Positions 45,611 through 48,010 of a stretch of DNA of 64,000 bases are shown here, piece after piece (the stretch's first letter is position 1; every line of letters starts with the position of its first letter). The notes under the pieces were generated by a model, which did not search any database, was not told the DNA's origin, and saw only the letters and a program-made list of their open reading frames with translations. This DNA comes from an uncultured delta proteobacterium (GTDB taxonomy: Bacteria > Desulfobacterota > Syntrophobacteria > Syntrophobacterales > Syntrophobacteraceae), in assembly GCA_963808625.1 (NCBI GenBank), contig CAWEHK010000052.1:1-64000 (forward strand), given 5' to 3'. The translations under genes were made by a program, and so were the position numbers.

Positions 45611-46123
45611 TCAGAAACAGAACGTTGTTTCGTCCTTTTCCTCAAATCGGTCAAGTATTCTTTCAATTATTTTCGTGGTGGAAGCATCGGGCACAAGCTC
45701 CACATGCACCACTCTTCCACCGGTCTTCTGCACTTCCGCCGCGCCGATGGTCTTGTCCAAGGGCCAGTCGGCGCCTTTCACCAGGATGTTCGGTTGCAGC
45801 AGCTCAATCAGCGGGAGGGGGTCGGGGGTGTCGAAAACACAGACGTAGTCGACGCAGTGGAGGGCGGCCACGAGCTCGCATCGTTCCGCTTCCGGGACAA
45901 TCGGCCGAAGCGGCCCCTTGATCTGGGTCACGGAACGGTTGCTGTTTACCGCGACAATCAGCAGATCTCCATGACTGCGGGCGGCTTCCAGGTAGCGGAC
46001 ATGACCAACATGGAGCAAATCGAAACAGCCATTGGTGAACACCACGCAACGTCGGCGTTCACGAGCTGCGCTGCAAATTTGTTCCAGTTCTTCAATGGTC
46101 TTGACTTTATCTCTGGCCTTCAT
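45611..46123 (-). CDS. rfaE2: D-glycero-beta-D-manno-heptose 1-phosphate adenylyltransferase
   Basis: VFTNGCFDLLHVGH, KGPLRP, LVKGADW, STTKII. Confidence 0.93.
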   Translation of the reverse strand: MKARDKVKTIEELEQICSAARERRRCVVFTNGCFDLLHVGHVRYLEAARSHGDLLIVAVNSNRSVTQIKGPLRPIVPEAERCELVAALHCVDYVCVFDTPDPLPLIELLQPNILVKGADWPLDKTIGAAEVQKTGGRVVHVELVPDASTTKIIERILDRFEEKDETTFCF

Positions 46124-46135
46124 TCCTCCCAGACG

Positions 46136-46603
46136 CTATCTTGTCGTGTTTGGAATGTTACGTATCTGTTCCTCGATTTTGCTGAGCTCCGTCTCGTCCA
46201 TCTCGGGGTACAAGCAAAACATGCCACATTCCAGGCCGTCGATAAGGCCTTCACGGTACATCTTCACCCAGAAGGGAAGACTTCCTCGCGAGGATTCCTG
46301 CTCGGGGGAGAGATCGGGGTATTCTACGTAAATCTCCCCTTTAAAAATATCTCTCAACCCCTGGAGCGCTGCCCGACCGTGCCCCGTTCGCTTTCTACCC
46401 TGAGTTTCGAATTGATGAATGGTTATCTCTCTGGTCCCATCCGGAGAAAGGCAAAGGCTGATCTGGCCCCGGCAAGTCGCGGGCTGCTCGAATTCCAGGA
46501 TTTCCATCGGGCCGAAGCCCTTGAGGACCGTGAGCAAGTCCTTTACGGACAGATCACCATAGGCGGCCTTCCACAGGATGCCTTTCCACTCGATTTCGGC
46601 CAC
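46136..46603 (-). CDS. Hypothetical protein with GNAT-like motif A
   Basis: RKRTGHGRAAL and SLPFWVKM; GGAGG SD before GTG. Confidence 0.6.
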   Translation of the reverse strand: MAEIEWKGILWKAAYGDLSVKDLLTVLKGFGPMEILEFEQPATCRGQISLCLSPDGTREITIHQFETQGRKRTGHGRAALQGLRDIFKGEIYVEYPDLSPEQESSRGSLPFWVKMYREGLIDGLECGMFCLYPEMDETELSKIEEQIRNIPNTTR

Positions 46604-46979
46604 GTGAAGAGCCTCCGCTTCTCTGCAAGGAAGGTTTGCGCGTTGTCGGTTTCAACTTGAGGTCGAAGTCCAGGTTTTTCATGGCCTCTTGCACCGCATG
46701 GCGCAGATCCAGCTCCCAGAGCGGCACCGTCGCGGAAAAGTCTCTCTCTGTGGCATTCTTGCCAATTCGGCAGGAACTCAGGGGGGGGCTATTCTTCGAG
46801 CCATCCCGGCTCGCAAAAAGGACCACTCAATAGCGATTGCCTTTGTTCACAACAAAGGGTTGGATGCCGAGCTGTTTGATTTCGGGACAGAGTTCATGGA
46901 GTTTGGACAGGATGACTTCCGTATTGAGTGCTTGCATGGGATATTCCGTACTCTGGTGAGGGTGGATGCCAATACGCAT
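46554..46979 (-). CDS. Candidate selenoprotein (141 aa; UGA at codon 51)
   Basis: Frame open on both sides of TGA 46827-46829; hairpin CGAGCC-GGGAT-GGCTCG starts 13 nt downstream of it. Confidence 0.6.
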
Positions 46980-47019
46980 TAGAGTATGCTCTGCAGGTTC
47001 AACAAGTCACGATCCAAAT

Positions 47020-47577
47020 CTAGCTGGAATTCAAACTCGGGGACCACCCGTTAGCTTCAGATTGGTCTCCAAGTCCAGACGAACATGCGAAAACCGCTAC
47101 TTCGTGGTAGCAGGCCAACTGGCGCAAGGCTTCGAACAGGGCGGCCCCTACACTCGTCGCCAAGTTTAGACTCCTTACCCGTGATCTGTCAATGGGGATT
47201 TGCAGGATTCGGTCAGTTTCTGAATCAAGGATATCCGCCGGCAGTCCTCTCGTCTCTGAGCCAAAAACCAGACAGTCTCCCGGCAGAAAATGGAATTCGT
47301 AATAGCGGCGCGAAGCGTGAGCGGAAAAATAAACCATGCGCGGAAAACTCAGCTCTTTGCGGAGTGCTTCCATGCTGGCATGGACCTTAAGCTGCACGTG
47401 CGGCCAATAATCCAGGCCAGCTCGCTTCAGATAGCGGTCCGAGAGTCGAAAGCCCAGAGGTCCTATGAGGTGGAGCGGCGTGTGGGTGGCCGCGCAGGTT
47501 CTGGCAACATTTCCCGTATTCTGAGGGATCTCAGGCTGGTAGAGAGCGACATGCAAAGCGGGCTCGGGTTCCGAAAT
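47020..47577 (-). CDS. trmL: tRNA (cytidine/uridine-34 2'-O)-methyltransferase
   Basis: PEIPQNTGN, RAGLDYW, FGSETRGLP, RSLNLA. Start is either ATT 47577 (GAGGTG SD) or TTG 47556. Confidence 0.92.
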   Translation of the reverse strand: MSEPEPALHVALYQPEIPQNTGNVARTCAATHTPLHLIGPLGFRLSDRYLKRAGLDYWPHVQLKVHASMEALRKELSFPRMVYFSAHASRRYYEFHFLPGDCLVFGSETRGLPADILDSETDRILQIPIDRSRVRSLNLATSVGAALFEALRQLACYHEVAVFACSSGLGDQSEANGWSPSLNSS

Positions 47578-47620
47578 GTGACTCCCACCTCGGCTCTCCG
47601 GAGACCACAACTCCTCTGCC

Positions 47621-48010
47621 TTATTCCTGCCCGGTGCGGACCGCCCGAACGAAATGATTGGCATAGTTTCCTTCGATCACATAAAGATCGCCGTAATAGA
47701 AATCGACATAGCAGGCCCGATGATGGTCCCTTTCGGTAGCCGTCCAGCAGCACCTCTGGTTCCCGAAGACGGGGTCCAGATAGAGTCCGCTGCGACGGTC
47801 TTCCTCACGAACAATCAGCGTGGCGAGTTCCTCCTGGGCAGGATAACGCCAGTCGCTGTATCCTCCGTAATGAGCCTCATTCAGACGGTCAATGTAGGCG
47901 AAGCCATCCTGCCAGACCATGCGGTCGGCAGACGCCCCACGCTGCCACATCAGTTTCGTTTCCAAGTCCTCTACGGCCAATTCTCCCCTTACCACAAAGC
48001 GATCGCTCAC
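47621..48010 (-). CDS. DUF1566 (Lcl-like) domain protein
   Basis: D.ETKLMWQ, GYSDWR.P...EL, terminal VRAVR; AAGGAG SD before GTG. Confidence 0.85.
   Translation of the reverse strand: MSDRFVVRGELAVEDLETKLMWQRGASADRMVWQDGFAYIDRLNEAHYGGYSDWRYPAQEELATLIVREEDRRSGLYLDPVFGNQRCCWTATERDHHRACYVDFYYGDLYVIEGNYANHFVRAVRTGQE

Follow-up and report, generated by a model that had tools for sequence, protein, structure and literature searches.

A probable selenoprotein of a new family, encoded beside trmL in a group of syntrophic and sulfate-reducing bacteria

Introduction

Does an in-frame UGA in a short gene without recognised relatives end one protein, or does it specify selenocysteine (Sec) within a longer one? 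The question is raised by a locus of an uncultured delta proteobacterium (phylum Desulfobacterota, class Syntrophobacteria, order Syntrophobacterales, family Syntrophobacteraceae) that lies in the first 64,000 nucleotides (nt) of contig CAWEHK010000052.1 of assembly GCA_963808625.1, the whole stretch that was analysed and is called the window here. On its minus strand, between trmL and a gene without a name (ORF2), is an open reading frame (ORF), ORF1, that is crossed by one TGA. A sequence-only reading of the window had described a minus-strand frame running through this single TGA (46827-46829) into 50 more open codons, and from it had proposed a Sec-containing protein of a family that it did not recognise. 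The frame and the residues quoted for it are correct, and the proposal is supported by the comparison of genomes presented below.

Homologues with cysteine (Cys) are the means by which almost every bacterial selenoprotein known so far was discovered or is confirmed. That selenoproteins without Cys homologues may be filtered out by prediction is a point made by the deep-Sep authors in their own paper (PMC12013277), and ORF1 would be a concrete example of this blind spot. It is near-universal in the sampled genomes of its order and apparently intolerant of Cys at the Sec site, which would make it useful for asking why Cys cannot always stand in for Sec; the pair that its Sec domain forms with a GNAT-like protein next to trmL is unstudied. 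We consider it highly probable that ORF1 encodes a true selenoprotein and that its family is new and Sec-only. There is strong evidence that this UGA-containing gene is translated and has a selected hairpin, like the selenocysteine insertion sequence (SECIS) of bacteria, in a Sec-using lineage; Sec as the inserted residue and the binding of SelB to the ORF1 hairpin are what we infer.

Results

Conservation of the UGA and of coding on both sides

A search at the DNA level covered 41 genomes (40 relatives besides that of the window) and found the ORF1 stretch in 7/7 other genomes of the genus at 72-82% identity; all eight genomes of the genus retain the in-frame TGA, with open frames on either side. 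With the read-through protein of 127 amino acids (aa) as query, 93 of the 96 genomes of the order gave a match. The three without one are a genome in which a contig end cuts the locus (G041) and two that are without ORF2 also (G064 and G033). A profile of the core (94 residues, from the 39 sequences of alignment A1) was searched in 122 genomes of the class and matched 96 of them: 78/80 in family f1 (window's own genome left out), 8/9 in f2, 6/6 in f3 and 3/3 in the sister family f113, with 0/22 in f5 and 0/1 in f4. No match to ORF1 was obtained in 388 sampled genomes of the phylum outside the order. The distribution of ORF1 is thus that of a single order and one sister family, a group of syntrophic and sulfate-reducing bacteria.

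The core contains exactly one TGA in 93 of the 96 matching class genomes, and in each of the 50 loci that were read out the TGA occupies one and the same column of the alignment. The exceptions to the single core TGA are two genomes with extra stops (G084 and G048) and one in which the gene is cut by a contig end (G061). The ORF1 copy of G048 (G048:C16:188616-188905) is in two pieces with two TGA codons, which could reflect either gene decay or misassembly. These counts agree with the earlier argument that a clean in-frame TGA was less likely to be an artefact. A frameshift or indel artefact was also considered and rejected, since all three frames were checked and no shift is needed; the run of eight C residues at about 46783-46790 encodes an invariant Pro-Pro-Leu.

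The differences between genomes have the codon periodicity of a protein-coding gene on either side of the TGA. Within the genus, pairwise differences at first/second/third codon positions are 0.173/0.113/0.379 upstream of it and 0.087/0.100/0.355 downstream, in the same frame, and over the 50 loci they are 0.379/0.185/0.655 and 0.261/0.173/0.507, respectively. Third positions are 2-4 times more variable than first and second ones on either side, in one frame, and the excess of synonymous differences collapses when the frames are shifted. As judged from the sequences compared, purifying selection acts on either side of the TGA, and the two sides of the UGA are translated in one frame. In addition, contigs from RNA libraries of two studies, together with their strain variants, span the TGA and do not differ at 46827-46829; these matches to sequencing runs have word shares of at most 0.20 and are of contigs only.

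The longest frame begins at ATG 46979 and comprises 50 open codons, the TGA, 90 further open codons and a TGA stop. The conserved start is the second ATG, 46937 ('MQALN...'), because three same-genus genomes carry a stop before the upstream part, just 5' of the equivalent of 'IGIHPH'; ATG 46979 would lengthen the protein by 14 residues. The earlier placement of Sec at residue 51 holds if one counts from ATG 46979, and with the likely start at ATG 46937 Sec becomes residue 37 of 127 aa. Three of the RNA-library contigs, from two studies, all stop at 46948-46950, 11-13 nt 5' of ATG 46937. These ends, a weak hint in support of that start, may mark the 5' end of a transcript; a scan for promoters and terminators gave nothing useful, and no sigma-70-like promoter was seen upstream of 46948-46950.

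A hairpin under selection downstream of the UGA

The hairpin starts about 8 nt after the UGA and bears an apical loop, GGGAU, that begins 19 nt past the UGA and lies at nt 23-27 if the U of the UGA is taken as nt 1. The upper stem of 6 bp (CGAGCC/GGCUCG, 46797-46813) closes on this loop (46803-46807), a bulged G (46814) follows, and below it are a lower stem of 5 bp (46815-46819 with 46792-46796) and an outer extension of 3 bp that reaches 46787-46824. The sequence-only reading had given the same stems, bulge and loop. It is the comparison across genomes, not the single sequence, that places the hairpin beyond chance.

That comparison was made on alignment A2, the TGA plus 45 nt from 50 loci. 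Pairs 20-30 and 21-29 are constant, and pair 19-31 is AU in 47 loci and GU in three. The two covarying pairs of the 5-bp core stem are 18-32 (GC 35, AU 10, GU 4, unpaired 1) and 22-28 (AU 37, CG 8, GC 3, unpaired 2). In all, 80% of the cells are paired, vs 37-49% when the 3' partner is slid by 1-3 columns, and the covariation score is 0.230 vs 0.152 +/- 0.009 in shuffles, none of 500 shuffles reaching 0.230. The apical G24 and G25 are invariant, as are the third-codon columns 21, 24 and 30, which belong to the stem and to loop G24, while loop column 27 varies.

Several of the compensatory changes are paid for by the protein. In the window's genus a Cys codon, UGC, has become GGC (Gly) with a synonymous AGG to CGG change opposite; in two other genera the same codon has become CGC (Arg) with AGG to GGG opposite, and elsewhere Ser UCx has become UUx (Leu or Phe) together with a synonymous GAG to GAA change. 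Because compensatory pairs cost amino-acid changes, the ORF1 protein tolerates the residue changes that the stem requires. The comparison thus shows the RNA stem to be under a selection of its own, with an estimated five or so independent compensatory events.

E. coli fdhF is the model case of a SECIS hairpin just 3' of a UGA, and ORF1 shares with bacterial selenoprotein genes of that type a UGA followed by a hairpin with a small, G-starting loop about 20 nt after the UGA; its hairpin, too, is part of the coding sequence, and selA, selB and selD are encoded in the genome. The criteria of bSECISearch ask for a small apical loop that opens with G some 16-37 nt past the UGA, and the ORF1 hairpin fits them, as judged by the criteria themselves. 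Positive controls came from the same genome, in which selD, three FdhA genes and four FlpD genes have an in-frame TGA: their hairpins bear GG in apical loops at about nt 22-28, and one FdhA hairpin reads GCC-GGGCU-GGC vs GCC-GGGAU-GGC in ORF1. A search of Rfam gave no family at E <= 1 in 46400-47100.

Selenocysteine machinery of the genome

The window's genome encodes selA (621.5 bits), selB (384 bits) and selD (372.4 bits), all over the cut-offs, and selA is present in 116/122 class genomes and in 67/67 good-quality ones. The check for machinery that the sequence-only reading had proposed was therefore positive for these three genes; selC, the gene for tRNA-Sec, was not found here, and was found in 5/5 relatives, two of them of the same genus (95 nt, 73-77 bits). 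The assembly is a draft, 84.6% complete and in 54 contigs, in which ARAGORN finds only 39 tRNAs, with those for Sec, Ile and Tyr among the missing, and evidently some tRNA loci are absent from it. The best Rfam candidate for tRNA-Sec in the assembly is a tRNA-Trp according to ARAGORN, and about 60 'SeC' calls made by ARAGORN at low stringency are unconvincing.

In the selD gene (G000:C44:20727-21647, L018), codon 10 of the part that matched is itself an in-frame TGA (...TCG-U-AAK...), which gives a Sec-containing SelD. The window itself contains a gene of the FlpD/MvhD family (PF02662; 10340-10708, plus strand) without an in-frame stop, and its four paralogues elsewhere in the genome have a TGA.

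The ORF1 protein

The conserved core of ORF1 spans about residues 6-97, and the tail, which makes up the C-terminal third, varies and is cut short in several genomes (G015, G003, G096 and G013). Invariant in the 39 sequences are the Sec, Pro13, Pro47-Leu48, Ser50, Trp69, Ala76 and Ala80, and the consensus round the Sec is ELCPE-x15-(R/G)(Y/F)-U-V(V/I)xFESRDCSKKxPPLSSF. None of the cysteines is kept throughout: Tyr or Arg takes the place of the first in several genomes, and Gly that of the second in the genus of the window. The earlier statement that there is no CxxU or UxxC motif holds for the consensus of alignment A1. Within the tail, the apparent conservation of 'SGG..RVE..' coincides with the GGAGG motif and, in the other frame, with the codons that open ORF2.

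The AlphaFold model of ORF1 is one domain (predicted local distance difference test, pLDDT, 82.9; predicted template modelling score, pTM, 0.74), with a predicted fold of a helix, a three-stranded sheet and a helix, in which the Sec would start the second strand of a beta hairpin. Searches with this model gave nothing at E <= 1e-3 in Foldseek and a best Z of 6.6 in VIA-align (the FP domain of Fbxo7), below the tool's noise level. Many of the weak Foldseek rows are dsRBD, RNase III and HPF, all likewise below the noise level, and the dsRBD-like order of helix, three strands and helix next to trmL is only a lead from a predicted model. By sequence, the PDB returned chance rows only (E >= 0.02), NCBIfam r20 had no match at E <= 1, and Pfam-A gave two chance rows (E 0.076-0.2) far under the cut-offs. 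There being nothing credible in Pfam or NCBIfam, the family stays as unrecognised as the sequence-only reading had it.

Among 1.84 billion cluster representatives, a profile search produced 31 matches, and the true ones either begin at profile position 33/34, just past the Sec, or finish at 30/31, just before it. Two matches that span position 32 were rejected as low-complexity repeat proteins. In the public gene calls, ORF1 is split at the TGA into two halves, which are unnamed or called 'hypothetical protein'. The homologues across the site that the sequence-only reading had proposed to look for exist with TGA at the same column and not with Cys, and none has another residue, such as Trp, at that place; nor is homology confined to one side of the TGA, being found on both sides in one frame.

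ORF2 and the gene neighbourhood

The order trmL-ORF1-ORF2 is kept in 50/50 loci, and in 38 of them the RfaE domain II-like gene comes next, as it does on the minus strand of the window. ORF1 had been said to fill exactly the gap between trmL and the following gene; this was not upheld, for its 3' ~50 nt (46554-46603) overlap the start of ORF2, which lies in the +1 frame relative to ORF1, an offset that is identical in 8/8 genomes of the genus. In five verified loci of another genus (G081, G091, G067, G065 and G062), ORF1 and ORF2 are in one frame of 272-306 codons, and these fused forms retain a Met at the position of the old ORF2 start. Four further genomes have open frames of similar length that would be candidates for fusion, and the long open frames of G025 and G039 (334-336 aa) were rejected as upstream extensions, not ORF1-ORF2 fusions. 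The GGAGG and GTG of ORF2 inside ORF1 suggest translational coupling, in which case how much ORF2 is made might hinge on Sec read-through in ORF1.

Among 5.8 billion proteins, 138 are relatives of ORF2; every one is unnamed or hypothetical, those with a named source coming from Syntrophobacteraceae, Desulfosoma and Desulfacinum, and ORF2 has no Pfam or NCBIfam family at E <= 1. The likeness of its model (pLDDT 82.7) to GNATs is weak yet consistent. The best Foldseek matches are SSAT and AAC(3), at E 1.8e-3 and above with TM about 0.3; of the best 50 rows from VIA-align, none above Z 6.2, about 35 carry the title of an acetyl- or acyl-transferase, and in the Atlas the nearest clusters that have a name are GNAT, scoring 0.94. 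GNATs, the acyl-coenzyme A (acyl-CoA) N-acyltransferases, bind the CoA pyrophosphate at an R/Q-x-x-G-x-G/A motif before a long helix. ORF2 shares their order of strands and helices and has an R-x-x-G-x-G-R stretch preceding a long helix, in which G74, G76 and R77 are invariant. By its predicted structure, ORF2 is probably a GNAT-like, acyl-CoA-binding protein.

In family f5 of a sister order, ORF2 homologues stand alone in two genomes (G505:C1 and G489:C1; E about 1e-50 to the profile), with neither ORF1 nor trmL beside them. Because these two genomes carry ORF2 without ORF1, ORF1 looks like a lineage-specific addition to ORF2.

Discussion

Alternatives to a selenoprotein

The simplest objection, that the TGA is a sequencing error or a nonsense mutation in a pseudogene, could draw on the draft state of the assembly, and is in effect already refuted by the conservation of the TGA and the codon-position pattern: a column held by TGA in 50 loci, a single core TGA in nearly every matching genome, the recurrence of the TGA in contigs of independent samples and the purifying selection on either side leave it a virtually negligible probability. 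The locus could instead be two small genes, a peptide of 36-50 aa that ends at the TGA and a second protein that starts at an adjoining GTG, as the public gene calls, which consist of exactly two halves, would have it. The codon after the TGA is indeed GTG in 36 of the 50 loci; the remaining 14 have GTC (2), GTT (3), GTA (1), ATT (3), ATC (3), ATA (1) or CTC (1), and the halves are always in the same frame without any variation in spacing. Moreover, AlphaFold models the two halves together as a single domain, with confidence, and puts strands 1 and 2 of the beta hairpin on either side of the TGA; covariation in the RNA stem is also bought with changes of amino acid, all of which makes a pair of separate genes extremely unlikely.

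A subtler possibility grants that the UGA is recoded and denies that it is read as Sec: a near-cognate tRNA for Trp, Cys or Arg could effect a programmed read-through that is stimulated by the hairpin. The comparative data show translation through the UGA and a selected hairpin, and not which residue enters, and the failure to find a tRNA-Sec in this assembly would also suit near-cognate read-through. Against it stand the position and G-rich apical loop of the hairpin, which match the SECIS elements that established selenoprotein genes carry in this genome, and the presence of Sec machinery throughout the class. If Trp or Cys were acceptable at the site, drift to TGG or TGC would be expected, and 0/95 genomes covering the site show it, nor is there a protein of the Trp or Cys type among the 1.84 billion representatives. 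We regard decoding by a near-cognate tRNA as quite unlikely. A further proposal would be added to Sec insertion and not replace it, namely, that in the window's genus a programmed +1 frameshift in the 50-nt overlap joins ORF1 and ORF2 into one polypeptide, equivalent to the product of the fused genes in the other genus. The in-frame fusions in five verified loci and the +1 offset in all eight genomes of the genus would accord with this; ORF2, however, has its own GTG, aligned with the Met of the fused forms, as well as a GGAGG 8 nt upstream, and the ORF1 tail ends early in the four genomes named above, so that such a frameshift seems very unlikely.

Sec insertion at the ORF1 UGA, which we prefer to all of these, has points weighing against it too. 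The selenium in the ORF1 product is a prediction from sequence comparison, tRNA-Sec was not found in this assembly by Rfam, ARAGORN or blastn with a same-genus tRNA-Sec, and, with no Cys homologue among the 1.84 billion cluster representatives, the usual support from Sec/Cys pairs is missing. As a single sequence the hairpin folds within chance (z = -1.65; 14/200 shuffles fold equally well), its lower-stem pairs 12-37, 15-34 and 17-33 are unpaired in 30-33 of the 50 loci, and the kinship of the sequences makes the shuffle tests overstate the support. DNA carry-over may account for the RNA-library contigs. With regard to the partner, the GNAT assignment of ORF2 is weak (Foldseek E 1.8e-3, Z 6.2, no Pfam match), ORF2 occurs without ORF1 in two sister-order genomes, and the functional link between the two is drawn from adjacency and fusion only.

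A possible role

Under the selenoprotein reading, the UGA at codon 37 would be decoded as Sec, with the hairpin acting as a bacterial SECIS that is bound by SelB together with Sec-tRNA(Sec), so delivering Sec to the ribosome. The ORF1 protein most likely works with the ORF2 product, because the two genes are always adjacent, ORF1 overlaps the ORF2 start and the two are fused in frame in some genomes. With low confidence, the Sec domain can be pictured as the reactive partner or acceptor of the ORF2 enzyme, its selenol being a nucleophile or redox centre that cysteine could not replace. It is rather unlikely, and yet worth stating, that ORF1 is a Sec-obligate module of a non-redox fold that was added to a GNAT-like enzyme within one order and whose selenol takes part directly in acyl transfer, for example through an acyl-selenoester intermediate or as a carrier of acyl groups or of selenium. 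If true, acyl transfer would explain the lack of a cysteine version. We know of no selenoprotein for which direct acyl-transfer chemistry by a selenol is known. Sec read-through of ORF1 could also couple ORF2 synthesis to the supply of selenium.

Comparison with known selenoprotein families

Syntrophobacter fumaroxidans, which we take to belong to the ORF1-bearing order, has a list of 39 selenoprotein genes that reportedly originates with Zhang and Gladyshev in 2010. Selenoprotein papers cite this species for its very large selenoproteome, and ORF1 would add one selenoprotein to its lineage. Table 1 of a 2026 review (PMC13188914) lists 119 families and subfamilies of selenoproteins, all of them identified by a Pfam, TIGR, NF, cd or PTHR entry, and ORF1 matches none of those that can be searched with Pfam and NCBIfam models, the cd and PTHR models being outside the search. 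Nor does a family like ORF1 appear in the parts seen of the lists of PMC1794560, PMC5029168 (Table S3) and PMC9312934, a negative that excludes the supplementary tables of BSepDB (PMC13326102), of deep-Sep and of Haft's papers, and also Zhang and Gladyshev 2010.

One likeness is to GrdA, a small selenoprotein without a known Cys homologue according to PMC1794560, and, according to PMC13188914, a reactive partner of other subunits and no stand-alone enzyme. ORF1 is also small and without a Cys homologue; it differs from GrdA in having no PF04723 match (E <= 1) and no CxxU motif, its Sec being flanked as (N/S)R(Y/F)-U-V(V/I), in its neighbours, which are trmL and the GNAT-like gene and not grdB or grdC, and in its confinement to one order plus a sister family. 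The thioredoxin-fold selenoproteins (Prx, Trx, Grx, DsbA-like and SelW-like, among others) are likewise small with a single Sec. In contrast to them, ORF1 has no CxxU, UxxC or TxxU motif, its A1 consensus has no Cys, Thr or Ser at +/-3 from the Sec, and Cys homologues are lacking. The nearby cysteines, 20 residues before and nine after the Sec, are each replaced in some genomes (the window has Gly at +9). No thioredoxin-like chains are among the listed Foldseek and VIA-align rows for ORF1, the best of which (Z 6.6) is itself below the noise level.

Coordinates of the locus and other observations

Table 1. Features of the trmL-ORF1-ORF2 locus, in coordinates of the window
Feature	Position	Strand	Remarks
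ORF1, predicted selenoprotein, 127 aa	46554..46937	-	Sec = residue 37; TGA stop at 46554-46556
In-frame TGA, predicted Sec codon of ORF1	46827..46829	-	Same column in 50/50 loci examined
SECIS-like hairpin	46792..46819	-	Fold, covariation, invariant G24/G25, likeness to same-genome selenoprotein hairpins
ORF2, 155 aa, probable GNAT-like fold, family without a name	46136..46603	-	GTG start at 46603
GGAGG Shine-Dalgarno-like motif	46612..46616	-	8 nt upstream of ORF2 GTG; in ORF1 tail, codons 'SGG'
trmL, SpoU-type tRNA methyltransferase	47020..47664	-	Pfam PF00588, 1.5e-27; upstream neighbour
RfaE domain II-like heptose-1-phosphate adenylyltransferase	45611..46123	-	TIGR02199, 1.2e-53, 180.8 bits vs cut-off 181.5

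The true start of trmL is probably downstream of the first ATG of its ORF. TrmL has a C-terminal extension of ~38 residues past the SpoU domain (47020-47120, minus strand), the Pfam match ending at residue 176 of 214, and this extension is present in the relatives of the genus too.

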